A stretch of DNA of 64,000 nt from an uncultured Gammaproteobacteria bacterium. GTDB taxonomy: Bacteria > Patescibacteriota > Patescibacteriia > UBA1558 > GWA2-36-10. Below, one piece after another: positions 4,890 through 60,085 of the stretch. The translations under genes and the position numbers were made by a program. The DNA lies in the NCBI GenBank assembly GCA_964638415.1, contig CAZWYP010000005.1:4121-68120 (forward strand), written 5' to 3'. Each line of letters starts with the position of its first letter. The stretch's first letter is position 1. The notes under the pieces were generated by a model. That model had not been told where the DNA came from, did no database searches, and saw nothing but the letters and a program-made list of their open reading frames with translations.

Positions 4890-4912
4890 CTCTGCTAATC
4901 AGAGCTATTTTA
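4888..4912. terminator. Bidirectional terminator hairpin between convergent genes (agctctgctaatcagagct)
   Basis: Perfect 7-bp stem between the + ORF stop (4889) and the cysS stop (4910). Confidence 0.4.
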
Positions 4913-6295
4913 AATCCTCATTTTCACTGCTTTTTGTCCTTCTTTAGTATCTTGTACTGCTATCCCCTGTCCAGCTAAATCTTCCCTTAATTTATCCGCT
5001 AATTCCCAATTTTTCTCATTCTTAGCCTTTAGGCGCTGAACTAATAATTCCTGTGCTTCCGCAGGTAACATTAAGGCCTGCTCCCGCAATATTTTCAAAT
5101 TCAAGCCCAAAACTTCATCCATTCGGTAAATAGTAGCCAGCTTCCGGCTGCTATCCATATCCAAAGCTATGGTTTCCTGCAATACTGCCAAAGCTTTGGC
5201 AATGTTCAAATCATCAGCTAAAGCATTATTAAACTTATCCAGCTGTTCAGTTATTATTTCTCCCGGTTCATTATACCAAACAATTTCACCGACAATACTA
5301 GTTAACCCGGCAACAGCAGCGGCTAAAGCTTCCCAAGTGAAATTCATCGGCTTGCGGTAATGCGTCTGCAATACTAAATAACGGTAAGCTAAGGGAGAAA
5401 GCTTCTTTGCCTGCAAATCCTGCAGAGTAATAAAGCTGCCGAGAGATTTTGACATCTTGCCATCCATGAATTTCACAAAATCATTATGCAGCCAATACCG
5501 AGCCTGCACTTTGCCAGTCACCGCTTGGCTTTGCGCCATCTCATTGGGATGATGGATAGTTAAGTGATCCACGCCGCCGGTATGAATGTCAAAGGTATCT
5601 CCTAAATTTAATCGGCTAATAACCGAACACTCTAAATGCCAACCGGGAAAACCCTTGCCCCATGGCGAATCCCATTCCATATCCCGCTGCGGACTATTAG
5701 CTGGAGAAAATTTCCAAACCGCAAAATCTGCCGGATGCTTTTTTTCCGGATTAACTGCCACCCTAGCCCCAGCTTGAATCTGCACTTGACCTAAATTAGC
5801 CAACCGGCCATAATCTGCTGATTTAGCCGTGTCAAAATAAAGGCCGTCCGCTAATCGGTAAAGAAATCCCTTACTTTCCAATTCTTTGACAAAGTCTATT
5901 TGCTCTTTGATGCAAGCGGTGGCTCGGACAAATTTAGTCGGCGGCAGAATATTAAGCTCCTGCAAGCCATCCTGAAAAACTTTAATAAAAAAGTCGGCAA
6001 TCGCCCAAGCATCTTTACCGGTACGCTGACTAGCTAGCTGCATCTTATCTTCGCCATCATCGGCATCTGAGGTTAAATGGCCGACATCGGTAATATTCAT
6101 AATATGATTAACTGCATAGCCTTGGCTTGATAAGAATCTTTTCAGCACATCCCAGACAATATATGCCCGCCAATTCCCGATATGAGGGTAATCATAAACA
6201 GTAGGTCCACAGCTATATAAACCAACTTGCCCGGATTTTAACGGAGCAAATTCCTCTTTTTGCTTGCTTAAGCTGTTAGTTAAGTATATTTTCAC
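4910..6295 (-). CDS. cysS: cysteine--tRNA ligase
   Basis: Class I motifs PHIGN and KMSKS; CGPTVYD; zinc ligands. Start is GTG by the track. Confidence 0.9.
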   Translation of the reverse strand: MKIYLTNSLSKQKEEFAPLKSGQVGLYSCGPTVYDYPHIGNWRAYIVWDVLKRFLSSQGYAVNHIMNITDVGHLTSDADDGEDKMQLASQRTGKDAWAIADFFIKVFQDGLQELNILPPTKFVRATACIKEQIDFVKELESKGFLYRLADGLYFDTAKSADYGRLANLGQVQIQAGARVAVNPEKKHPADFAVWKFSPANSPQRDMEWDSPWGKGFPGWHLECSVISRLNLGDTFDIHTGGVDHLTIHHPNEMAQSQAVTGKVQARYWLHNDFVKFMDGKMSKSLGSFITLQDLQAKKLSPLAYRYLVLQTHYRKPMNFTWEALAAAVAGLTSIVGEIVWYNEPGEIITEQLDKFNNALADDLNIAKALAVLQETIALDMDSSRKLATIYRMDEVLGLNLKILREQALMLPAEAQELLVQRLKAKNEKNWELADKLREDLAGQGIAVQDTKEGQKAVKMRI

Positions 6296-9229: not shown

Positions 9230-9949
9230 TCAGACGGTAGCTGGCATCGGTTGAGGAAGAATCACTTCTCCCAATTGGCGCAAACGCCCCACTATCATGA
9301 GGTGGGGCTCGGAATCTGGCTTGGTCAAACCCAATAAGCGTTGGAGGTATGATCGACTCTTGATCTTACTCACCTGATTTCTCAGGTGGGTCTGTGTAAG
9401 GCTGCTGCCTAAATCTTGTGGCATCATCTGATGGCACCGGATCAAAGCAACAGCATTGTGCTGCAACTGACAAATCTGACTGTCGAAAACTTGGAGTATT
9501 CTCCTGCGAACGAACAAGCGTTCTTTGGAATTAACTCCCAGAAGGTTTGCAATTTGGCACAATTCTTGCAAATCAGTAATACCTCCAACCAAAGTTTTCA
9601 ACTTGTTGAAAGCGACAAGTCTCTTTTGCACCCAGCTGTCGCGTTCTTTGTCGCGCCAAGACTGAGCAGAAATAAGAGCTTGCCAATAATTGATCTCCTC
9701 AGCCAGTGCACGCGCCAGACGCAATCTGACTACCTTGGTGGATTCTGGAGATTGGCACTTAGCAAGCAACACTCGCAAAGTTTCAATTTCCACTTCCGCT
9801 AAAGCAGTATTCAGCCTGGTGCAAGCCAAGGTGGATGCTGACTTCAAGCCGCGGCTGTAAGAAGCTTTGATCTGCTCTTGCAGATAATCAACGTATCGAA
9901 TCAAAGAAGCTGGTGCTGTAGGTGCTGGTGTTGGTGATGTTTCGGTCAT
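9230..9949 (-). CDS. hypothetical protein with a possible sigma70-region-4-like HTH
   Basis: LQELCQIANLLGVNSKERLFVRRRILQ resembles an r4.2-type HTH. Pro/Thr-rich N-terminus. GC ~47%. Confidence 0.35.
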   Translation of the reverse strand: MTETSPTPAPTAPASLIRYVDYLQEQIKASYSRGLKSASTLACTRLNTALAEVEIETLRVLLAKCQSPESTKVVRLRLARALAEEINYWQALISAQSWRDKERDSWVQKRLVAFNKLKTLVGGITDLQELCQIANLLGVNSKERLFVRRRILQVFDSQICQLQHNAVALIRCHQMMPQDLGSSLTQTHLRNQVSKIKSRSYLQRLLGLTKPDSEPHLMIVGRLRQLGEVILPQPMPATV

Positions 9950-10027
9950 TCAGACTCTCTCCCGATGTAAAAATTGAAGGGTACATTTTCGTAAAATGTA
10001 GATTAGCAAAAAAACTGCTATTTGTCA

Positions 10028-24004: not shown

Positions 24005-24033
24005 TTGACATTTTCTGCCATTGCTCATATAAT
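24005..24033 (+). promoter_or_regulatory. Consensus sigma70 promoter (TTGACA - 17 nt - TATAAT)
   Basis: Both hexamers match consensus exactly: 24005-24010 and 24028-24033. Confidence 0.6.
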
Positions 24034-24039
24034 AACTAT

Positions 24040-24217
24040 GCTTAATGATTGGAATAGCTACCAACTATTCTGTATCCGTTTTTAGCGGATTTACCTCTTT
24101 GGCTAAGTTAAGCGGACAAATTAATCAATAAAGTGGTTTAGTATGCTGTATTTACTAGGCAACTTGGGTGGAACCGCCTAAAAACTTAGGTCCCAAGATA
24201 ATAATCTTGGTTTTTTT
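24040..24217 (+). promoter_or_regulatory. T-box-like riboswitch leader (Thr specifier ACC) with antiterminator/terminator switch
   Basis: cuuGGGUGGAACCGCC at 24163-24178 matches the T-box motif AGGGUGGNACCGCG. It can form the antiterminator CUUGGG-[UGGAACC bulge]-GCC...GGU-CCCAAG. The competing terminator is CCAAG-auaauaau-CUUGG followed by U7 (24193-24217). Upstream hairpin gaauag-CUACCAA-cuauuc (24052-24070) presents ACC, then a purine, in a 7-nt loop. Confidence 0.55.
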
Positions 24218-24228
24218 ATTTTAAAAAT

Positions 24229-24993
24229 ATGAAAGAGTTTATCAACAACCGCAAAAACCAAAAATTAGCAGTAATTATAGAACAGCCAGTTAATCCCCGT
24301 GGCTTAGCGATTATCATGCACGGCTTAGGCGGCTTTAAAGAACAAGAGCATATTGCTATGTTCGCTGAAACTTTTCTAGAAAATAGCTATACCACCATCC
24401 GCTTTGACGCTGCTGACACTATTGGTGAAAGTGAAGGTAAGATGGAAGAGGCTACGGTCACTAATTACTACGAAGACTTGGAAGATGTGATTACTTGGAC
24501 TAAAACTCAAAAATGGTATCAAGAACCGTTTATTTTAGTAGGACATAGTTTGGGAGCTGGTTGTTCTCTGTTATATGCGGAAAACCACCCTCAAGAAGTA
24601 AAGGCTATTGCTCCCATATCTACAGTGGTTTCCGGAGAACTTAGTTTTCAGACTTACACCCAAGAAGAATTAGATCATTGGAAACAAACCGGCTGGCAAA
24701 TTACGGAAAGTCGCGGTAAACCTGGTGTATTTAAAAAACTGCCCTGGTCACATATGGAAGATAGATTAAAGTATGATTTGTTGACTAAGGTAGATAAGCT
24801 GATTATGCCAATAATATTAATAGTCGGTGATCAGGATGACGCTACGCCTTTGGCACATCAACAAATATTATTTGACAAACTGCCCGGACCAAAAGAATTG
24901 CATATAATAAAAGGAGCTCCCCATACTTTTCGGGAAGAAAAACACTTAAAAGAAATTAAAGAAATATTAAATAATTGGATTAAAACTTTATGA
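24229..24993 (+). CDS. alpha/beta hydrolase
   Basis: IIMHGLGGF oxyanion region and VGHSLGAG nucleophile elbow; 4-nt overlap with the thrS start. Confidence 0.65.
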   Translation: MKEFINNRKNQKLAVIIEQPVNPRGLAIIMHGLGGFKEQEHIAMFAETFLENSYTTIRFDAADTIGESEGKMEEATVTNYYEDLEDVITWTKTQKWYQEPFILVGHSLGAGCSLLYAENHPQEVKAIAPISTVVSGELSFQTYTQEELDHWKQTGWQITESRGKPGVFKKLPWSHMEDRLKYDLLTKVDKLIMPIILIVGDQDDATPLAHQQILFDKLPGPKELHIIKGAPHTFREEKHLKEIKEILNNWIKTL

Positions 24994-26747
24994 AACAAGA
25001 TAAAATATTCAAAATCCGCCACTCGTTAGCCCATGTGCTGGCCATGGCTGTGCTTAAAAAATTTCCCGAAGCCAAATTAGCAATCGGCCCGGTAATCGAT
25101 AACGGCTTCTATTACGATTTCCTGCTACCGGCTAAAATCTCCGATGCCGATCTGCCGGCTTTAGAAAACATTATGCGGGAAATAGTAAAACAAAATATTG
25201 AATTTAAGAAAAAGGTAGTACCGCGAGCCAAAGCCTTGGACATAACCAAAGAGCAGAACCAGCCATTCAAGACCGAGCTAATTAACGATTTGCCTGACGA
25301 TGAAACTATTAGTTTCTACTCCTCCGGCAGCTTTAATGATCTCTGCCGCGGACCGCATGTCAAAGCAACAACGGAAATTAACACTGAAGCCTTTAAATTA
25401 ATCAGCGTAGCCGGTGCCTATTGGCGAGGTGATGAAAAAAGGGAAATGCTTACCCGTATTTACGGCGTAGCTTTTGCCACTAAAGAAGAATTAGAAAAAT
25501 ACTTGACTATAATGGAGCAAGCCAAAGAGCGGGATCACCGCAAGCTTGGCAAAGAATTGGACTTATTCACTTTTTCCGACTTAGTAGGACCTGGCCTGCC
25601 TTTATGGACTCCTCATGGCATGATCATCCGCGAACAAATAGACAATTTTGTCTGGGAATTAAGAAAAGTGCATGGCTACCAAAAAGTAGAAATTCCCCAT
25701 ATTACCAAAAAAGACTTATTTGTCACTTCCGGGCATTGGGATAAATTTTCCGATGAATTATTCAAATGCCAGTCCCGCGAAGGCCACTTATTTGCTCTCA
25801 AGCCCATGAACTGCCCCTTCCATACCCAGATTTTTGACCGCAATAAGTGGAGCTACCGGGATATGCCCCAGCGCTATGCTAATACTACCATGTGCTACCG
25901 GGATGAGCAGACTGGGGAACTTTCCGGCTTAAGCCGCCTACGCTCCTTTACCCAGGACGATGCCCATGTTTTCTGCCGTGAGTCCCAAACCACAGAAGAA
26001 GCTTTAAAAATCTGGGATATTATCCAGGCTTTTTACAAACAAACTGGCTTCAAATTAAAAGTTCGCTTATCTTTGCGGGATCCAAAACAGCCGGAAAAAT
26101 ACAAAGGTAGTGAAGAATTATGGTTAAGATCGGAAGAACAGTTAAGAAATATTATCCAGCAAAAGAAAGTTAAGTTTACCGAAGCCTTAGGTGAAGCAGC
26201 TTTCTATGGACCAAAGATAGACTTCTTAAGCCATGACTCTTTGGGACGCGAATGGCAGGTTGCTACTATCCAAATTGACCGCAGTATGCCGGACAGCTTT
26301 AACCTGCACTGCATTAATGAGAAAGGTGAAGAAGAAAGGATTGTCATGATCCATGCTGCTATTGCCGGATCTTTGGAAAGATTCATGTCTGTCCTCATTG
26401 AGCACTTAGGAGGCAATTTCCCTACTTGGCTGGCTCCTGTGCAAATAAAAATCTTAACTGTCAATTCCAGCCATGGAGAGTTTGCCCACGGCTTAGCTCA
26501 AGAATTTGCTAAAGCTGGATTAAGAATAGCTGTTGACGACTCCAGTGAGACTTTGGGCAATAAAATACGCAAAAGCGCCAAAGACAAGATTCCTTATGTG
26601 CTGGTAATTGGCGACAAGGAAATGAACTGCTCTGCTCTATCTGTACGCGTACGAGGCAGTAATGATCTATTAAACATTGCCAAAGCAGATTTTATCCGCC
26701 AAGTAAAAAATGAGGTGAAAAAAAGAAAACTAAAGCTCCTCAAGTAA
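24990..26747 (+). CDS. thrS: threonine--tRNA ligase (lacks the N-terminal TGS domain)
   Basis: Editing-domain HxxxH (HSLAHVLAMAV), class II catalytic motifs, C-terminal anticodon-binding domain. 585 aa versus ~640 for full-length ThrRS. Confidence 0.9.
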   Translation: MKQDKIFKIRHSLAHVLAMAVLKKFPEAKLAIGPVIDNGFYYDFLLPAKISDADLPALENIMREIVKQNIEFKKKVVPRAKALDITKEQNQPFKTELINDLPDDETISFYSSGSFNDLCRGPHVKATTEINTEAFKLISVAGAYWRGDEKREMLTRIYGVAFATKEELEKYLTIMEQAKERDHRKLGKELDLFTFSDLVGPGLPLWTPHGMIIREQIDNFVWELRKVHGYQKVEIPHITKKDLFVTSGHWDKFSDELFKCQSREGHLFALKPMNCPFHTQIFDRNKWSYRDMPQRYANTTMCYRDEQTGELSGLSRLRSFTQDDAHVFCRESQTTEEALKIWDIIQAFYKQTGFKLKVRLSLRDPKQPEKYKGSEELWLRSEEQLRNIIQQKKVKFTEALGEAAFYGPKIDFLSHDSLGREWQVATIQIDRSMPDSFNLHCINEKGEEERIVMIHAAIAGSLERFMSVLIEHLGGNFPTWLAPVQIKILTVNSSHGEFAHGLAQEFAKAGLRIAVDDSSETLGNKIRKSAKDKIPYVLVIGDKEMNCSALSVRVRGSNDLLNIAKADFIRQVKNEVKKRKLKLLK

Positions 26748-26801
26748 ATTTTCTCAAAAAGTGGTATAATAATCTTGCCACAATTAATTTTTAACATTAT
26801 G

Positions 26802-28058
26802 AAAAAAATAATCGCCTTATCTTTCCTACTGGCTTTAATAATCAGCCAGTCTGCGCAAGCGCAAGAAACAGTAAATCAGGAGATTGCCGCGGAATTAAGC
26901 GCCGATGAAATCACGGCTACTGACTTGGATTTAACCGAAGAGCAAGTTAAGCTGCCGGGGACTTTTGGCCACTGGTGGAGCAATGTAAAAATCAATACCA
27001 AAAGTTTTTTTGCCAATGATCCGACCAAAGCGGAATTAAAACTGAAACAGGCTAATTTGGAATTATTAGCCGCTAAAAAGCTGGCGGGAAACACTAATAA
27101 TGAGGAGAGTAAAAAGAAGCTGGAAAAAGCCTTGGCTAATTACCAAAAGCATACTGCTGTTTTAGAAGAAAAACTAAAAAAGGTACCAGCAGATAAAAAA
27201 GAACAGCTATTGGAAAAGCTGGCAGACAACCAATTAAAACATCAGGAAGTTTTCCAGAAGTTAATCTCCAGCGCCCCAGAACAGGCTAAAGAAACTTTAC
27301 TTACTGCCAAAAAAGAGGCGCTGCAAAATTGGTATGAGAATCATTCGGAAGATTTTGCCGCCAGATTAAAAGAAGCAGTAGATAATAATAATCAAGGCAG
27401 TAAGTTTAAAAATCTCCAGATTATGGCCACTCTGCAGGAAATGTCATCAGATTTACCGGCAGACGCCAAAGAAAAGATAACTGAAGCAACGCAAGCGGCA
27501 GAAGCTAAACTAAAAGAAAGAATACAAAATCTCCAAACAGAAGATCAGGATAAACTGGAAAAATACCTAAAAACATTACCCATAGATGATATTAAAAAAA
27601 CGGAGATCATCAATCGCTTACAAACCGATGATAATCTAAAAGAACTATGGGATCGCTTAGAAAAAATAAAAGAAGAGCAATTGGAAAAGATAAAAAATAA
27701 CCTGGAAAATCTAGATGAAGCAGGCAGAAAAAAATTCTTGGAAGATAATTTCTCCCAAGAAGCTAATGCTGCTAGAGTAATTATTTTAGATAAGATTAAA
27801 GATGATTTACCAGCTTTGAGAGAGAAGGTAAAAGAAATTGACGAAAAACAGCAGTTGATGATCAAAGAAAAAATAAAAAATGCTGGGGATGAAAAAAAGC
27901 TGGAAGAACTAAAAAAAGAATTAGAAACCATTAATCGTCCAGTTCTAAAAAAAGAGTTATTAGACAAGGAACAAGAGTTTAAACCAGAACTTAAAGAAGA
28001 ACTTCCTGCTAAACCCCTGCCGCAAATCCGCCCATATAATGCCAGTGCCAGCAATTAG
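26802..28058 (+). CDS. secreted Lys/Glu-rich coiled-coil protein
   Basis: Signal peptide MKKIIALSFLLALIISQSAQA followed by a long KE-rich helical region. TGnTATAAT extended -10 at ~26766-26775. Confidence 0.5.
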   Translation, partial: KKIIALSFLLALIISQSAQAQETVNQEIAAELSADEITATDLDLTEEQVKLPGTFGHWWSNVKINTKSFFANDPTKAELKLKQANLELLAAKKLAGNTNNEESKKKLEKALANYQKHTAVLEEKLKKVPADKKEQLLEKLADNQLKHQEVFQKLISSAPEQAKETLLTAKKEALQNWYENHSEDFAARLKEAVDNNNQGSKFKNLQIMATLQEMSSDLPADAKEKITEATQAAEAKLKERIQNLQTEDQDKLEKYLKTLPIDDIKKTEIINRLQTDDNLKELWDRLEKIKEEQLEKIKNNLENLDEAGRKKFLEDNFSQEANAARVIILDKIKDDLPALREKVKEIDEKQQLMIKEKIKNAGDEKKLEELKKELETINRPVLKKELLDKEQEFKPELKEELPAKPLPQIRPYNASASN

Positions 28059-41882: not shown

Positions 41883-42264
41883 GGGGATGTTTTATCTTCG
41901 CTGGCAATTAAAATAATAAATCGCAAGCTGAGCCGATCACCTCATAAAACTGGTCATTAAATTAAGTGCCAAAAACTTAGTTGCGAAAGCCAAAGAACTT
42001 TTCCAGGTTCCTCAACTTTCACCAGTCTTAGCTTAAGTGCTCAAGACCGTCTCTTAAGGCTTGTTTGGGGCTTTAAGTCAGGCGTCATTTTCCAAACTTA
42101 GAAATGCTTAATGGCCGGTGAGCATTTCAAAAACTTTCGGCCTGCAATTAGTAGTGTTTTGCTGGTTTTAGAGCTATTAATCAAAGTGGAAAAAACCAAC
42201 TAAGCTTGTAGAAGTTTGTTAGGCTAATTGTTAGACAGGGGCGCAATCCCCCTCATCTCCACCA
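41883..42264 (+). ncRNA. ssrA: tmRNA (SsrA), ~382 nt
   Basis: 5' GGGGAUG pairs with 3' CAUCUCC-A-CCA (acceptor stem, discriminator, CCA). T-arm-like AGGGG-cgcaauc-CCCCU sits just upstream of the 3' end. An in-frame tag-like reading frame ...AKAKELFQVPQLSPVLA-TAA lies at ~41968-42036. Directly downstream of smpB, and followed by a hairpin at ~42272-42288. Confidence 0.7.
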
Positions 42265-52543: not shown

Positions 52544-53458
52544 TTAATTAGCTGTAAAATAAGCGCTTAAATAACTAGTAGTCTGATTTAAATCCGCTTT
52601 AAGTATTTTAGCAGAATTACTATGCTCAATAATCTGCAAATCCTGAGCTTGGCTTAACTCCATAATCTTTAGTAAAGCATTGAGCGAATCCGGAGAATCC
52701 AGATAGTCGCTGTTTAAATTACTAAGCAGTTGGTAGTCCTTGTTTTTAATCGCCGACAAGGTAATTTGATCATTCCTCTCCGCTTGCGACAAAGGCAGAT
52801 AATGGGATAGATCCAATGAATTAATCACTACCGTTCTCTCGTCAAGCCAAGGCAAAATTGCTGCCGCTAAAGAAAAAGATTTATCATTGGTCTGATGGGA
52901 AGTGAAAATAATCGGCGCTACTTTAGCTTGAGGAAAGTACTGCTTAATAAAAGGCAATAACACTGCTACTGAATGTTCTGGCTTAAAGTTGTCCAGATCA
53001 TAAGCAATAAAATCATCTTTAACCAACTGATCTAAAATTTCCTGATCCTGCTTAACTTCTCCTAAAAAAGTCTGCCAATTAACCGCAGCGGAAATAGCTG
53101 GTGCTTTTGCTAAATCCCGATGATTAGGGGCTAAAATAACAAAAGTATCTACTATCTGATTTTTAGATAAGGAAAGGAAAAAATCTGCCAGCAAATCACT
53201 GGCCAAATCATGGTGCGGCAAAATTGCCCCCATTACCCGTTGGCCATTATGGATATATTTTTCTCCCGCTTGAGCAAGAGACTGGTCAAATAAATAATTA
53301 TTGGTCTCAACTGTAATTACTGGGTAGCTTTCCTGACTAATACTGGTAAACGACTGGGTTTCCACTGACTTAAACATGGTGTAAATTAAAACCAGTCCAA
53401 CCGCTAAAATAATAGCGGCATTGAGTTTAAAAATGTGTCGGCTAAACCAATTCTTCAT
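52544..53458 (-). CDS. MEMO1-family (AmmeMemoRadiSam system protein B-like) protein with an N-terminal membrane anchor
   Basis: GAILPHHDLASDLLA, VILAPNHRDL, NSLDLSHY and IEHSNS match the MEMO1 pattern (IiPHAGy.ySG / iLgPsH / sSDLSHy / H). N-terminal TM helix. Its start overlaps the stop of the A2M-like gene by 1 nt. Confidence 0.5.
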   Translation of the reverse strand: MKNWFSRHIFKLNAAIILAVGLVLIYTMFKSVETQSFTSISQESYPVITVETNNYLFDQSLAQAGEKYIHNGQRVMGAILPHHDLASDLLADFFLSLSKNQIVDTFVILAPNHRDLAKAPAISAAVNWQTFLGEVKQDQEILDQLVKDDFIAYDLDNFKPEHSVAVLLPFIKQYFPQAKVAPIIFTSHQTNDKSFSLAAAILPWLDERTVVINSLDLSHYLPLSQAERNDQITLSAIKNKDYQLLSNLNSDYLDSPDSLNALLKIMELSQAQDLQIIEHSNSAKILKADLNQTTSYLSAYFTAN

Positions 53459-56400
53459 TATGGTTGAATGGTTACTTGCTGGCTATCGGCAAAATTCATA
53501 ATCTCCGGGACATTAAATGATTGGATGATAATCGGCTCAGCTTGGTAAGTCCCTGGATTGGTAATGCGGGCATAATAACTAAAGTAATCCTTTGCGCAGC
53601 GGGACTGTTTCCAATCTTTGCTGATACTGAACTTAACTTGCTGCCCCTCAATCTCATAAGGATAGTAATATCCGCAATCTACATAAGCCCCGCGATAATA
53701 CGGACGAGTAGTAACTTTCAAGCCGCTGGGCAGCAAGTCAATAATCTGGTATCTGCCCTGCAAAGCGCTGCTGGAAATAAAAGGATAAACCCTAACTTCT
53801 ACCAAATCACTTTCTTTAAAGCTACTAGTCTCTACGTCATTGACATAATATTTTCTGGCAATAGCGATATTGCGATCAACTGTCGCATCGCTAGCAGCTA
53901 ATGGTTTTTCGTAAGTACTTACCAAGCCAACTTCTCCCTCAATATTGCTGAATTTAATACTAGCTAATTCCTGAGGACTTACTTTAATTCTCCAGCTCCG
54001 GCCTTTATCTAAAGTCTGCTGATGCTCCTGCTCACCTACTTTAACCGTAAATTTAACTTCTCCTTCTCCTAAATTGGGCAGAGTATTAGCCACATAATGC
54101 AATTTTTCCAGATTAATCAATACCTCTTTAGTGCGGTTTTCTACAGTATACTGCCATAATGGCTCATGCAGTTTGTCATTCAAGCCACCGGCTAGAATTG
54201 CCGCTAAAGCAGTGACAGATAAAATATCGTCCATATCGCCGCCAGTATTTATTCGGGCATATTGCTCGCCATAATTTTCCCCATGTTTTTCTATTAACTC
54301 TAAATAAATACTCTTAGCCAGCTGATTATCCCCTAAACTCTGGGCACCTAAGGCAATATATAATTTCTCTTTAATGGTTAAATCCGGCAAAGCGGCAAAT
54401 TGCTGAAGAACCAAGAGAATCGGCTCATCTAAAGCTGCTAAGCCGGCCAGAGACATCACTACCTCTTCCTGGTTGGAATCCTCATTGTTCAACTTGCCGT
54501 AAAAATAATTAGCTAAACTAGTTTGATCAAATTTATCAGCGGCCACCATTGCTGTTCTGACGCTTAATTCCATTTCCGGATCGCTGTAAGGCAATAACGT
54601 GATGCCGCCGTTGTATTGGTATAATGATCCTTCAAATTCCGGCACATAAGTTTGGTCAGAAAAATAATCTTTAATCAACTGACTGCCAATAACTCTAGAG
54701 AACTTCTGATCAACCCGATCACCATAAGCCCAGGCTAAATGGGTTAAATAGCGATATAGGCGGCCGCGATTGCGATCAGAAAAAGTCAAAGTAGTAGCTG
54801 AATCCGAACTGCCTTTCACCTGCAACTCTGGAGATAAAATATAGTTTTCCTCCACTAATTTGCGCAAATGGGAATTAGTAACTAGAATCGGCAAATTAAC
54901 CGCATCCTGATATTCTCCAAATTCCACCCCATAGGTAAGATCATATTCTCCTAAAGACAATTGCGGTATATTAATATAACTTGGCTCGAAGGCCTTGCCG
55001 TCAACCGTAGTTTTATCCAAGCCTAAAGTGGCAGCGTCCAGACTAAATCTGACCTGATCGCCATTACGCAAGGCATCACCATAAGCCCGCAATTTAACCG
55101 TCGGCTGGTCAGCTGCCAGATACTCTTTAGCAAAGGTCCCTTCAACAAAAACCGGCAAGCTAACCATAATCTTACTGACTCCATCACCAGCATATAGATC
55201 TTTGGTAATTGCCTGGGCGGTTATCCTCCAGGAAGTAATATTATCCGGCACGGTAAAATTAACTGTCGCTTGTCCATTGCCGTCGGTAATCACTGAGGCA
55301 AATAAGGCATTGTCGGTAAAGTTGTCTCTAACTCCGCCACTTTTTTGGTTATGGACGTAAATACCGTCCGCTAAATAAGTATGATAATGCTTGGTCTGTA
55401 AATTATATACCTCCGCCACCTCTTCTGACTGCTCGATGCTGAAAATCTTAACTGGCTGACCATGATCATTCATCAGCCAATCGCCTACCGCTGCTTGGCC
55501 GATTGGCTGCCACTTATTATTCAATAATACTATATGCTCTGGCGTCACCTTCAATTGGTTGTTGATTATCAGATAACCGGAAACAACATGATAAAAGGTT
55601 TTTTCTACTTCTGTCGCCACTAATTTTCTTTCAAAGGGTGAAACAAAAGTCATTATCTGTTCACCAACAGCGATATCTTCAATATTCTTGGTAGAGCCAT
55701 CTGCCATAGTCACTTTAGTGCCAGCCAAGAAACAGCCACCTCCTTCCGCGCCCAAGCCAAAGTCTGCTAATGCTTCCAAACTTTCTGCCTTATTAGTGCG
55801 ATAAGAAGTAATTTCTCCTGAAGAGATATAGCCATTGTATAAGGTTTCCAAAGGATTAACATCGCCACCGTAACTGATATCATAATAGGCTTCATCTACT
55901 AAATTAACGTTAACACCAGCCGCTACCGGATTATTATTAAGATCGCTGACTTTAACCTGTAAGGTAACTTCTTCACCGGGCTTAAATTCTTCCTTATTAG
56001 CTTCTACTTCCACTTTTAACTCACGGTCGGAATATTTAAATTTAACAGCCGTACCGCCACTACCACCCCACCACCAATAATTTCCCTGGCTGCCGTCATG
56101 ATAAGACCGGCCATCAAACCAAACGCCTTTAACATAAACCACGGGTACATACTGAGCAGTAAAATCAAAACTGAATTCCGGCGCATTACTTAAACTATAA
56201 TCCAACAATCCTTGCTTGAGCTTGAAATACAAGTAATTTTTCTGATCGGATGTGGGTAATAATTCATCATTCTTCAAGAATTCGAATTCTACTGCTTCGC
56301 CTATAGAAAATTGCGAATTATCCCGTTTATCCTGGCTTTTCAACCTCAGCTGATAATAATCATAGCTGCCGCGGGAATCATAGCTACTGTTATAATAATA

Positions 56401-58875
56401 ACTGGTTAAATAATCATTCCTGCCCTGACCGTCGGAAACAATCACGTCTACCCGATAGCTTTTATCTTTCTCCACACTTAACCGATAACGATGCTCTCCC
56501 TGCTGATTGGAACTGCCGCTATAGGTGGTTAATTGCTTTTCTATGCGGTCATAGCGGTACTTCTTTCTAACTACTTTATTGATAAAATCATAATATTCCC
56601 CATCTTCTTTAGCCTCATAGCTAATTTCGGTAATCTTAGCAGAAATGGCTTTATTGACTGCCGGATCCCCTAAATAATCCTGGTAACCAGTAGCTTCCCC
56701 ATTATTAATTTTATCCAAATCAACATTATTCACCTTAGTTAAGATATCTACTGACACTGCACGACCAGCACTGTCTTCTTCATTCTCAAATTTAATCTGA
56801 CCAGCTATTTTAGGACCAAAAACTCTAACAGAAGCATAGGCGCTAATATCTGCCTCTTCGGATTTTACTGGATTAACATTAATGGAATAATATTGCGGAT
56901 AATCGCAGCCATAATAATCTCCGCTCTGCGGACAATCCTGGTATTGCGTTGGCAAGCTTAAATGCCCATTGCCAAAAATATCCGTCTTCAACTGGCCCTC
57001 TGGCTGTTCACTAGCCTGATACTTCAATTCTAAATTAGCTACCGGCGTTCCTTCAAAAAAATTAGCCTTAACATCTACCTTTACATCTTCACCGGCAAAT
57101 AAAGCGTTTTTCTCCGGCTTAGCTTCTATTTGGTAAGCTGGCTTAACATAGCGCTCTACTGTTAAATAATGAGTGCCAATTACTTCTTCTCCCAATAAAA
57201 TCTCCATACTATACCAGCCTGGCTCAACATTCTTAAGATCCAAACTACCGGAAAAAGTATTAGCTTCAGTTAATATTACCTGCGCTTGGGCGGTGGAAAT
57301 TCTTTCTAGATAATAATTATAATAGCTCTGGCCGTTAATTAACTTCACTGTCAATTCTTGGCCGGCGTTTATTTCTCCTGCTCGCGGCTTAACAAAGCCC
57401 CAAAAATTAACTTTATCGGTTGGCTGGTACATCGTTCGGTCGGTATAGAAATAAAACCAGTTATCCGGCCGAGTATAATCGTCCATTTGGAAAGAGACTG
57501 CCACTACATTAGTATAGCCGCCGCCGGTGATTTTAAGAAAATGGTAATTCCTTGACCAATCCTCATTTTGGTCAAAACCGGCGGCAGTATTCATAGTTGC
57601 CAAACCGTCATTGTTGGTATTCTGGATAATGCCTTTATCTACTGAGGTAACCTGCGCTTCGGCTATTGGTCCACCAGTATCCAGACTATTTACCCAGATC
57701 AAGGTATTGTTGGTGGTAATATCGGCATAGATTGCCAAATTATTTACCTGGAAAAAAGCCTGGCTGACAAAATCATCATACTTCATTTCAATCAGATAAA
57801 AACCATTGGGTAAAGTCTCGGGTAAAACCAGATATTTAGCATATTCATATTCTACCATCGGCAGATTATGCTCGCCTACCTTGGTTAAAGACTGCGGATT
57901 GTAATAGTAATTATCCCGGTGGTACCTGGCCCAATACGGCCATCTCTCTTTATCTTTAGCCGCTTCAATATACTGGTCAGCGCTGGCAAAAGCATAGACT
58001 GTTACCGGTACATTCTTGGATTCTTGGTTGTAATAGGCAGTTAAAGGAAATAGCGGCGGAGTATCCAAGGAAAATTCACTGAAACTCTCAGCAAAACCTA
58101 CCCGCCTATAATTACCCTGGCCATCTTCCGTATTAGCCGGCTCCGTCTCAAACCTAAAGATATGATCATTATTAAGCTTCAAATCACTGCCCTCTAAAGC
58201 AATACTTTTGTCCACCGTAACCTGGTAAATAGTGCCGTTTTGCAAACCGCCGCTGGGAACAAAAACCAAGGTTCTTTTATGCTTTTCATAACGCCCCTCT
58301 ATTGCCGGCTCAATTTTAATCTTGCCTTCGTAGTCAATAAAATTCTCATGGCTGAAAGTAATTTCAATACCGGTATTAACCGGCACATAAGAGCCTTTGT
58401 CTCTGGGTAGAGTGTTTAAAATCTTAAATTGATCCTTAACCTGAAAAGCCCAGGAATAATTGTATTTCTGCTCCTCACCCGCTTCATCCAGATAATTGGA
58501 GGTAATCTTCACCCGGTAAACTTTCTTTTGCTCCAAGGGATTTTTAGGAACTACTTCAAACTTATTCTGGTCAATGGTTTTAAAGTCAAAGTCAACTGTG
58601 GGCTCCAGGCTAATGTTAGAAGCTAATGCCTGAGGGTCCACCACATCCTTACTGGTAATAATAAAGGAGGTGGTATCTTCTACTCCAATACTGTCTGCTT
58701 TGGTAGGAATAATCTCAAAATTATCCTGAGCAAAAGCGGAGTTAATAAATAATTTAGTAAAATTGCGGGTATCCACTAAGCCCTGATCTTTAGGCCAAAG
58801 ATAAAAATAACCGGCTAATATTGCCACAATTAAAAAAATAGCAATAACGGGCACCCAGATTTTTGCTTTAAACAT
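53458..58875 (-). CDS. alpha-2-macroglobulin-family large surface protein (thioester-less) with an embedded Hint/BIL domain
   Basis: N-terminal TM anchor. Multiple Ig/MG-like beta domains. NFTVPDNITSWRITAQAIT...SLPVFVEGTFAKEYLAADQPTVKLRAYG aligns with the A2M/C3 MG6 signature ([10 protein letters not shown]...FFVELTMPYSVIRGE / DSITTWEIL). Helical TED-like C-terminal region without a CxEQ thioester. Confidence 0.6.
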   Translation of the reverse strand: MFKAKIWVPVIAIFLIVAILAGYFYLWPKDQGLVDTRNFTKLFINSAFAQDNFEIIPTKADSIGVEDTTSFIITSKDVVDPQALASNISLEPTVDFDFKTIDQNKFEVVPKNPLEQKKVYRVKITSNYLDEAGEEQKYNYSWAFQVKDQFKILNTLPRDKGSYVPVNTGIEITFSHENFIDYEGKIKIEPAIEGRYEKHKRTLVFVPSGGLQNGTIYQVTVDKSIALEGSDLKLNNDHIFRFETEPANTEDGQGNYRRVGFAESFSEFSLDTPPLFPLTAYYNQESKNVPVTVYAFASADQYIEAAKDKERWPYWARYHRDNYYYNPQSLTKVGEHNLPMVEYEYAKYLVLPETLPNGFYLIEMKYDDFVSQAFFQVNNLAIYADITTNNTLIWVNSLDTGGPIAEAQVTSVDKGIIQNTNNDGLATMNTAAGFDQNEDWSRNYHFLKITGGGYTNVVAVSFQMDDYTRPDNWFYFYTDRTMYQPTDKVNFWGFVKPRAGEINAGQELTVKLINGQSYYNYYLERISTAQAQVILTEANTFSGSLDLKNVEPGWYSMEILLGEEVIGTHYLTVERYVKPAYQIEAKPEKNALFAGEDVKVDVKANFFEGTPVANLELKYQASEQPEGQLKTDIFGNGHLSLPTQYQDCPQSGDYYGCDYPQYYSINVNPVKSEEADISAYASVRVFGPKIAGQIKFENEEDSAGRAVSVDILTKVNNVDLDKINNGEATGYQDYLGDPAVNKAISAKITEISYEAKEDGEYYDFINKVVRKKYRYDRIEKQLTTYSGSSNQQGEHRYRLSVEKDKSYRVDVIVSDGQGRNDYLTSYYYNSSYDSRGSYDYYQLRLKSQDKRDNSQFSIGEAVEFEFLKNDELLPTSDQKNYLYFKLKQGLLDYSLSNAPEFSFDFTAQYVPVVYVKGVWFDGRSYHDGSQGNYWWWGGSGGTAVKFKYSDRELKVEVEANKEEFKPGEEVTLQVKVSDLNNNPVAAGVNVNLVDEAYYDISYGGDVNPLETLYNGYISSGEITSYRTNKAESLEALADFGLGAEGGGCFLAGTKVTMADGSTKNIEDIAVGEQIMTFVSPFERKLVATEVEKTFYHVVSGYLIINNQLKVTPEHIVLLNNKWQPIGQAAVGDWLMNDHGQPVKIFSIEQSEEVAEVYNLQTKHYHTYLADGIYVHNQKSGGVRDNFTDNALFASVITDGNGQATVNFTVPDNITSWRITAQAITKDLYAGDGVSKIMVSLPVFVEGTFAKEYLAADQPTVKLRAYGDALRNGDQVRFSLDAATLGLDKTTVDGKAFEPSYINIPQLSLGEYDLTYGVEFGEYQDAVNLPILVTNSHLRKLVEENYILSPELQVKGSSDSATTLTFSDRNRGRLYRYLTHLAWAYGDRVDQKFSRVIGSQLIKDYFSDQTYVPEFEGSLYQYNGGITLLPYSDPEMELSVRTAMVAADKFDQTSLANYFYGKLNNEDSNQEEVVMSLAGLAALDEPILLVLQQFAALPDLTIKEKLYIALGAQSLGDNQLAKSIYLELIEKHGENYGEQYARINTGGDMDDILSVTALAAILAGGLNDKLHEPLWQYTVENRTKEVLINLEKLHYVANTLPNLGEGEVKFTVKVGEQEHQQTLDKGRSWRIKVSPQELASIKFSNIEGEVGLVSTYEKPLAASDATVDRNIAIARKYYVNDVETSSFKESDLVEVRVYPFISSSALQGRYQIIDLLPSGLKVTTRPYYRGAYVDCGYYYPYEIEGQQVKFSISKDWKQSRCAKDYFSYYARITNPGTYQAEPIIIQSFNVPEIMNFADSQQVTIQP
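55348..55734 (-). other. Hint (mini-intein-like / bacterial intein-like, BIL type A) domain, 129 aa, residues 1048-1176 of the A2M-like protein
   Basis: Intein block A CFLAGTKVTMADGS (Cys1 after GGG), block B LKVTPEHIVL (TxxH), blocks F/G VYNLQTKHYHTYLADGIYVHN ending in His-Asn. The +1 residue is Gln (HN|QKSGG), so canonical splicing is not possible. Confidence 0.65.
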
Positions 58876-60008: not shown

Positions 60009-60085
60009 TGGCGGGATGGAAGGGACTTGAACCCTCGACCTCCTGCGTGACAGGCAGGCGTTCTAACCAACTGAACTACCACCCC
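60009..60085 (-). tRNA. tRNA-Asp (GTC)
   Basis: Reverse complement reads GGGGTGGTAGTTCAGTTGGTTAGAACGCCTGCCTGTCACGCAGGAGGTCGAGGGTTCAAGTCCCTTCCATCCCGCCA. The acceptor stem GGGGTGG/CCATCCC pairs, the anticodon loop is CTGTCAC (GTC), the T-loop is GGTTCAAGTCC, and CCA is encoded. Confidence 0.9.

Follow-up and report, generated by a model that had tools for sequence, protein, structure and literature searches.

A candidate threonine-specific T-box riboswitch pairing an ultrashort specifier stem with a transcription terminator ahead of thrS in a Patescibacteriota genome

The T-box riboswitch is the textbook example of an RNA that reads tRNA. Here we analyze a compact leader RNA preceding an operon that encodes an alpha/beta-fold hydrolase and threonine--tRNA ligase (thrS), located in a 64,000-nt stretch of DNA from an uncultured bacterium placed by GTDB in the Patescibacteriota (GenBank assembly GCA_964638415.1, contig CAZWYP010000005.1, positions 4,121 to 68,120; hereafter the window). 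The leader spans 179 nt (24039-24217; this element and all other features of the leader and its operon lie on the + strand) between the promoter and the hydrolase-thrS operon.

On the current view, transcriptional T-boxes require a long Stem I, the distal platform of which grips the tRNA elbow for fast binding (PMC7583486; bioRxiv 10.1101/2023.02.28.530422). The ultrashort (US) Stem I T-boxes, represented by the ileS leaders of M. smegmatis and M. tuberculosis, are translational, operating through a Shine-Dalgarno sequestrator, are exclusively associated with ileS and tRNA-Ile in Actinobacteria, and need a K-turn as well as a stem II S-turn and a IIA/B pseudoknot (Sherwood, Grundy and Henkin 2015, summarised in PMC7583486 and bioRxiv 10.1101/2023.02.28.530422). 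An ultrashort Stem I is accordingly treated as a feature of translational T-boxes, and has been rationalised on kinetic grounds (PMC7583486).

The leader in the window very probably acts as a T-box riboswitch specific for threonine, regulating the hydrolase-thrS operon through transcription attenuation, and homology together with covariation points to a tRNA-dependent mechanism. An earlier note on this DNA had proposed a compact threonine T-box in a genome resembling those of the Candidate Phyla Radiation (CPR), a proposal now backed by the Infernal E-value and by about 20 orthologous leaders with compensatory changes. With the classical class I T-boxes (Rfam family RF00230; B. subtilis tyrS, thrS and glyQS), the leader shares the T-box sequence with its UGGN bulge, an antiterminator of helices A1 and A2 that competes with an intrinsic terminator, a purine run before stem III, an A-rich linker with an F-box-like motif, and a specifier codon that matches the regulated aminoacyl-tRNA synthetase (aaRS) gene and is followed by a purine. 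It departs from them in its Stem I, a 19-nt hairpin as opposed to some 90 nt, which presents the codon in a terminal 7-nt loop rather than on the 3' side of an internal loop and is devoid of S-turn, AG bulge and distal T-loop platform. The K-turn is represented by a degenerate 5' strand (GAUUG) that lacks its GA partner on the 3' side, and a base helix, P0, encloses stem I together with stem II, and sometimes a third hairpin, whereas the classical base helix encloses stem I alone.

The earlier note had also likened the leader to the actinobacterial ultrashort T-boxes, and the terminal-loop specifier indeed agrees with their published definition (bioRxiv 10.1101/2023.02.28.530422). In both, a short helix displays the specifier in its terminal loop, an elbow-binding platform is lacking, and the discriminator core of stem III, A1, bulge and A2 is kept. 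In contrast to the US class, however, the CPR leader ends in a terminator followed by U7, with the start region outside the hairpin, in place of a Shine-Dalgarno sequestrator, and it serves thrS and tRNA-Thr in CPR/Patescibacteria rather than ileS and tRNA-Ile in Actinobacteria. Its stem II is short and its linker F-box-like; the S-turn and K-turn consensus was not found in it, a pseudoknot was not supported, and P0 is present instead. The leader is hence best filed as a structural variant of the T-box, belonging neither to the US class nor to classical class I, and its architecture is apparently undescribed so far; a literature search of limited coverage returned no paper linking T-boxes with CPR, Patescibacteria, Parcubacteria or Saccharibacteria.

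Antiterminator, terminator and regulatory output

The T-box sequence UUGGGUGGAACCGCC (24164-24178) includes UGGGUGGAACCGCC at 24165-78, which agrees with the consensus AGGGUGGNACCGCG at 11 of its 13 specified positions, in keeping with the close match claimed earlier. It aligns to RF00230 at posterior probability '*', and the string GGGUGGNACC occurs exactly once in the whole 64-kb window. Ahead of it lie an A-rich linker (24115-24135), with the F-box-like ACAAAUUA and then the purine run AAAGUG (24130-35), and stem III (24136-24160), formed by GUUUAGUA at 24136-43 and UACUAGGC at 24153-60, where a stem III-like hairpin had been anticipated. Rfam aligns the linker to CGUUA...AAuaaAGuG at high posterior probability, and the linker forms a conserved block in related leaders; stem III is present in most of these with different sequences, and is absent from L002, L003, L024 and L031 (L numbers denote the loci compared). 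T-boxes carry an RRRNG purine motif ahead of stem III (PMC7778990), and the AAAGUG run before the stem, with AAC after it, follows the RRRNG...AA rule.

The antiterminator (24163-24197) combines helix A1 (CUUGGG 24163-68 / CCCAAG 24192-97), the bulge UGGAACC (24169-75, with UGGA at 24169-72) and helix A2 (GCCUAA/UUAGGU, 24176-81/24186-91), with a fold energy of -12.7 kcal/mol. A1 and the bulge are as the earlier note described them; A2 comprises 6 bp, not the 3 bp given there. The intrinsic terminator (24193-24217) is formed by CCAAGAU (24193-99) and AUCUUGG (24204-10) around the 4-nt loop AAUA, followed by U7 (24211-17) and lying before the first gene as had been proposed. None of 200 shuffles folds as well as the terminator hairpin alone, which was also picked up by a terminator scan. 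The two folds are mutually exclusive, the CCAAG of the A1 3' strand being also that of the terminator 5' strand. When the alternative structures were folded, both formed, and in the window their full states are near iso-energetic, at -32.7 kcal/mol for the antiterminator and -32.9 kcal/mol for the terminator, which suits a ligand-tipped switch. In the terminator state the T-box sequence (24164-24181) can fold upon itself (UUGGGUG-GAAC-CGCCUAA), hiding UGGA, and this self-fold together with the terminator is preferred by RNAfold (-15.4 kcal/mol).

A metagenome scan with the pattern TTGGGTGGNACC..CCCAAG..CTTGGTTTT, which constrained no part of the 5' half and left the N of UGGN open, yielded 29 loci. 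In an alignment of the switch half, with loops excised and rows anchored on this pattern, helix A2 is 92% paired and shows compensatory changes in four of five pairs, as do all three distal terminator pairs that the pattern left free. Two leaders, L010 (2819-2866) and L025, have inserts of 27-39 nt in the apical loop of A2; insertions in A2 are typical of translational T-boxes (PMC7583486).

All US Stem I T-boxes described to date are translational (bioRxiv 10.1101/2023.02.28.530422; PMC7583486), and a kinetic argument current in the field holds that T-boxes without a platform suit translational control, so that the leader might likewise switch at the level of translation, or at both levels, its 3' hairpin acting as a sequestrator. 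We consider this unlikely. In every relative the hairpin is directly followed by U7-U8, and in the window it excludes the start codon and the 11 nt before it, the hydrolase ATG (24229) lying 12 nt past the U tract. Among relatives, moreover, anything from 3 to >200 nt separates the U tract from the first start codon, a variation that would be intolerable for a sequestrator and that therefore fits termination rather than sequestration of the ribosome-binding site.

The bulge reads UGGA in every leader with a Thr codon, even though the search pattern allowed UGGN, and the three hits without a Thr-type leader, L021 and L034 (both upstream of a class I aaRS gene) and L027, have UGGU or UGGC. The variable base of UGGN covaries with the tRNA discriminator (PMC7778990), and the UGGA bulge predicts a tRNA-Thr with discriminator U73.

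Specifier hairpin and P0-closed junction

The ultrashort Stem I (24052-24070) is the hairpin GAAUAG-CUACCAA-CUAUUC, with a 6-bp helix (24052-57/24065-70) and a 7-nt loop (24058-64) in which the threonine codon ACC (24060-62) is followed by A. Aligned without gaps from the specifier loop outward, 20 leaders have 93% of the helix cells paired, and all six pairs show compensatory changes. Doubly changed cells number 39, against 9.4 in shuffles; none of 500 shuffles attains the observed score, and sliding the partner strand lowers pairing to 27-56%. The loop has the form N-U-A-C-C-A-A, with U in at least 90% of leaders and with invariant A, C and final A. Its triplet is ACC except in L019 (ACA) and L040 (ACU), all of them threonine codons; the gene downstream of the ACU specifier in L040 is clearly thrS, and thrS is the regulated gene in essentially every locus. 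The covariation and the exclusive use of Thr codons among relatives agree with the specifier assigned in the earlier note and argue that the hairpin is real and under selection.

A second ACC (24094-24096), in the spacer between stem II and the junction strand CUAA, could in principle serve as the specifier, leaving another role for the 5' hairpin, and the poor alignment of the 5' half to the Rfam model would leave room for such an arrangement. This second triplet, however, is missing in the closest relative, L044, and in others, while the ACC of the loop is invariant or synonymously replaced (ACA/ACU), sits in a covarying hairpin and keeps a fixed distance to GAUUG, making a specifier located elsewhere very improbable.

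The loop CUACCAA is built like an anticodon loop: of its 7 nt, the second is U and those 3' of the triplet are purines. Pairing between tRNAs whose anticodons are complementary was reportedly studied by Eisinger in 1971 and by Grosjean, Soll and Crothers in 1976. In such anticodon-anticodon complexes two 7-nt loops, each of this same build, form three central pairs. Given its format, contact of the CUACCAA loop with the anticodon loop of tRNA-Thr would therefore resemble these complexes, which offer a plausible physical model by analogy for that one contact only. In E. coli, autoregulation by ThrRS through anticodon-arm mimics is established, and the match of the hairpin to an anticodon arm in size and loop length would also be expected of a ThrRS-bound operator of this style, the 3' T-box part then being a relic. 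But the loop carries the codon ACC and not a Thr anticodon (NGU), and the T-box, antiterminator and terminator of the 3' part are conserved and covary, unlike a relic, so that an operator of this kind has even less to commend it than a displaced specifier.

The specifier hairpin is set in a junction closed by helix P0, which, like stem II and the junction strands GAUUG and CUAA, had not been recognized in the earlier note. The P0 5' strand UGCUUAAU (24039-24046) pairs with the P0 3' strand GUUAAGCG (24107-24114), and the helix closes upon the conserved strand GAUUG (24047-24051), always exactly 6 nt ahead of the specifier loop, the specifier hairpin, the stem II hairpin AUCCG-UUUUUAG-CGGAU (24074-24090) and the conserved strand CUAA (24103-24106), which abuts the P0 3' strand on its 5' side; in some lineages a third hairpin is included. 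In an anchored alignment of 19 leaders GAUUG is present in 17, where AUUG is invariant and the first base is G or A. The 6-9 nt located 5' of GAUUG vary by lineage, yet they complement the nucleotides that follow the mid-leader CUAA, as seen in L008 (GCUUUAAAU / AUUUAAAGU), L032 (CCUGAGGU / ACUUUAGG), L036 (CGCAGAC / GUUUGCG) and L025 (UGGAAC / GUUUCA). When the sequence from stem I to the T-box was scanned without bias for the longest complement of the 5' 9-mer, this lay immediately behind a CUAA in 14 of the 19 leaders. P0 is paired in 80% of the alignment cells, compared with 56% in shuffles and 22-44% in slid controls, and all nine of its pairs show compensatory changes, with 52 doubly changed cells against 20 in shuffles; where leaders contain several CUAAR motifs (L005, L010, L023, L026 and L044), the pairing CUAAR was chosen, which biases those rows of the alignment. 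In 18 of 19 leaders stem II follows stem I at a distance of 0-3 nt, each time with a different sequence, and that of L044 (UUUCU/AGAAA) occupies the same place as AUCCG/CGGAU in the window. By comparison with the K-turn 5' strand of classical T-boxes (PMC7583486), GAUUG would hold the position of that strand (GAUGA), the 3' GA partner being absent.

Other pairings within the junction were considered, and the first two of these were rejected. Complementarity between GAUUG and the F-box-like CAAUY does not exceed the shuffled level, and this pairing would also cross P0 with a connecting loop that is too short. A IIA-type helix, G(A/G)CU...(A/G)G(U/A)C, proposed by RNAalifold shows one-sided changes only; it also overlaps P0, and in the window it includes a G-A mismatch. 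On inspection, complementarities between the loop of the third hairpin and downstream sequence, as expected of a IIA/B-like pseudoknot, are inconsistent across leaders.

The junction of the window also contains near-duplicates, AGCGGAU (24084-24090) and AGCGGAC (24111-24117), both of which are able to pair with AUCCG (24074-78), so that the 3' side of stem II could alternatively be supplied by sequence overlapping the 3' strand of P0. L044 shows the near-duplication in a fainter form (AGAAA and AGCAGAU). In L031 and L041, which are unrelated leaders, a 3x3 purine-rich internal loop follows the third base pair of P0.

Covariance models, distribution and gene context

A default Rfam scan of the window at gathering thresholds reported no T-box; a tmRNA (41883-42264, +, 113 bits) and a tRNA-Asp(GUC) (60009-60085, -) are the sole RNAs to pass. 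When searched against a 351-nt stretch with an E-value threshold, RF00230 matched 24029-24198 at 43.2 bits (E 1.8e-8). The 3' half, comprising linker, AAAGUG, stem III, T-box and A1/A2, aligns at near-maximal posterior probability, and the 5' half aligns poorly, with 37 nt replacing 89 Stem I positions of the model. Scores below threshold were likewise obtained for the relatives L005 (36.9 bits), L044 (43.1 bits) and L029 (46.2 bits). The Infernal check suggested in the earlier note thus returned a low E-value together with a score under the cut-off, and under the refutation rule given in that note comparative evidence was needed to settle the matter.

This evidence includes a covariance model of the decoding module from P0 to the linker (R1), based on 17 relatives with the window and L044 left out, in which the module order is P0, GAUUG, a specifier hairpin of 6 bp and 7 nt, stem II, CUAA, P0' and a CAAUU linker. 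R1 finds a single match in the 64-kb window (24038-24128, 61.1 bits, E 4e-9) and matches L044 at 62.2 bits; it has no match in L012, L018, L029, L040, the Firmicute-like leaders discussed below or unrelated loci. No other T-box was found in the window with Rfam, the T-box pattern or R1. The window has two aaRS genes, of which only thrS has the leader; the other, cysS (tRNA-synt_1e; 4910-6295, -), has an upstream gap of about 97 nt in which no T-box was found. Chance resemblance, or a decayed and non-functional leader, for which one could invoke the sub-threshold Rfam score and the frequency of hairpins and U runs in an AT-rich genome, is effectively refuted by the RF00230 and R1 E-values and by compensatory changes in four helices across some 20 independent lineages.

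The best matches to ThrS (57-67% identity) belong only to Patescibacteria/CPR: Nomurabacteria, Komeilibacteria, Magasanikbacteria, Wolfebacteria and Paceibacterota. The leader was identified upstream of thrS in seven of the eight CPR loci reached via protein homologues, the exception being L048. Searching genome contigs with ThrS returned only an unrelated Spirochaetota match, as even the closest ThrS has no more than 67% identity. On the seven ThrS contigs the gene order is mostly dnaE, a gene for a 373-aa hypothetical protein, thrS, IMPDH, a DUF5667 gene and miaB; in L012, only dnaE of this shared order stays beside thrS. In total, about 20 distinct CPR-type thrS leaders were collected, L044 included, and those measured extend over 149-216 nt from the specifier region to the U tract. 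As the earlier note had anticipated of orthologous leaders, the T-box block and the ACC loop are conserved, with covariation in Stem I, A2 and the distal terminator. The thrS leader of L012 (CP064996.1, 2780-2990) is divergent: GGCUC/GAGCC encloses only a GCAG-CUACCAA-CUGC hairpin, the terminator is much longer, and the T-box reads GGGACGGAACC, with ACGGA instead of UGGA, which would mispair with A76.

Several points weigh against interpreting the leader as a T-box riboswitch. Its support is wholly computational, and the RF00230 score of 43.2 bits falls short of the curated gathering cut-off of 93, a shortfall that arises because the decoding half misfits the classical model, the discriminator half being that of a canonical T-box. 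Helix A1 and the proximal terminator are uninformative as to covariation, having been prescribed by the search pattern. Upstream of the L048 thrS (Candidatus Magasanikbacteria, GCA_001782955.1 relatives; 9730-10000), at 60% identity, no T-box or terminator was found by eye, with R1 or with Rfam, and the element is therefore patchy, not universal, within CPR. ARAGORN detected no tRNA-Thr gene in the window or in any of the 50 loci, which include L047, an extension of this genome by about 9 kb past the window, and three Magasanikbacteria loci of 21 kb each. Finally, neither K-turn, specifier S-turn, stem II S-turn nor distal platform is recognizable in the leader, and the speed of tRNA binding therefore lacks an explanation.

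Transcription of the leader would be driven by a sigma-70-type promoter (24005-24033), composed of TTGACA (24005-10), a 17-nt spacer and TATAAT (24028-33). All 12 positions match the consensus, as the earlier note had it, and the inferred start lies at about 24039-24041. Promoters of the form TTGAC(A/T)...TATA(A/C)T occupy the equivalent place in L002, L003, L005, L008, L010 and L044. The first gene of the operon (24229-24993) encodes a 254-aa esterase-like alpha/beta-fold hydrolase (Hydrolase_4/Abhydrolase_1), the stop codon of which overlaps by 4 nt with the start of thrS (24990-26747; 585 aa; TIGR00418 at 654 bits, with a cut-off of 384).

The hydrolase family is well conserved in Patescibacteria, at 60-67% identity across many genomes, and the order leader-hydrolase-thrS is common only to the window and its closest relative, L044 (81% identity). 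In most relatives thrS directly follows the leader. Elsewhere the slot between terminator and thrS holds a D-Tyr-tRNA deacylase (Dtd) in L026, L036 and L041, a GNAT acetyltransferase in L015, L032 and L023, an AAA_33 kinase-like protein in L029 and a NUDIX fragment in L019. Because the slot holds other genes or none in relatives, the hydrolase is, to judge by gene order, a lineage-specific passenger in an insert-tolerating slot and not a conserved regulatory target. The earlier suggestion of hydrolase control stands to the extent that a hydrolase-thrS operon lies behind the leader, and fails in so far as the hydrolase is such an insert.

No functional tie of the hydrolase to threonine or tRNA was found: its matches are generic and esterase-like, with none pointing to a specific substrate, and a 65%-identical homologue lies in an unrelated context, flanked by genes for a helix-turn-helix (HTH) protein and an EamA transporter. 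L007 also has a Hydrolase_4 gene close to thrS, but the two hydrolases are not homologous. The occurrence of Dtd in the slot in three lineages hints at a functional pairing of Dtd and ThrRS under Thr control. On the 3' side, thrS of the window is followed not by IMPDH (guaB), as in relatives, but directly by the gene for a 427-aa Lys/Glu-rich repeat protein (26775-28058, +) with no Pfam match of its own, in the place where relatives, after IMPDH, have the DUF5667 gene. This difference in neighborhood implies that the lineage of the window lost or moved IMPDH and gained the hydrolase. Farther away, the window encodes an 1804-aa alpha-2-macroglobulin-like protein (53458-58875, -; Big_5, A2M_BRD, A2M) with Hom_end_hint/PT-HINT matches at residues ~1047-1175, suggesting an intein or Hint-domain insertion.

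Proposed mechanism and relation to other T-boxes

From the elements described above we infer tRNA binding, discriminator pairing, termination in vivo and a three-dimensional role for P0, GAUUG and CUAA, and regulation would proceed as follows. Transcription would begin about 6 nt past the -10 box, and the P0 5' strand would emerge first, followed by GAUUG and by the 6-bp hairpin presenting ACC in the anticodon-loop-like CUACCAA. Stem II would then form and P0 close (24039-46/24107-14), producing a small-junction decoding module in place of a long classical Stem I, with which the anticodon of tRNA-Thr(GGU) would pair at ACC. An uncharged tRNA would pair through its 3' end (predicted UCCA) with the UGGA of the bulge and stabilize A1/A2, stacked on stem III, allowing RNA polymerase to go on and transcribe the hydrolase gene and thrS. 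With a charged tRNA, or with none, CCAAG would instead join the terminator (24193-24210 and U7), and transcription would stop before the ATG at 24229.

A further set of thrS leaders, here termed Firmicute-like (L014 1200-1423, L020, L028, L037 and L039), was encountered on contigs of higher GC content. These resemble the CPR leader in presenting ACC in a terminal loop and in having UGGA and an intrinsic terminator. Unlike it, they have a canonical K-turn (GC-GAU-GA...GA-GC) around a stem of 4-5 bp with the 6-nt loop CUACCA, and no P0/GAUUG/CUAA arrangement. Neither Rfam (no match at E<0.05) nor R1 detects them. Since they also combine a terminal-loop specifier with a terminator, this combination is not confined to CPR, and the Firmicute-like leaders appear, from their sequences, to be a second kind of transcriptional T-box with a terminal-loop specifier. 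Whether the CPR thrS leaders make up a separate T-box class, defined by a P0-closed decoding junction, an anticodon-arm-like codon hairpin, the absence of K-turn, S-turn and elbow platform, and a terminator as output, is in our judgment evenly poised.

The pairing of an ultrashort stem with transcription attenuation is one that the kinetic argument disfavors. If the CPR leaders do form such a class, a T-box could reach its decision co-transcriptionally without the elbow contact deemed kinetically necessary in current models, and the P0/GAUUG/CUAA junction would set the codon in place with respect to the discriminator in a novel manner. At about 150-180 nt, these leaders would rank among the smallest natural transcriptional T-boxes, and would be attractive for structural work and engineering. 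The CPR form would take ultrashort T-boxes to a second amino acid and, in its terminator-coupled version, would extend the T-box mechanism to a major and little-studied bacterial branch, in whose genomes T-box regulation is probably under-counted, the Rfam threshold missing the whole group.

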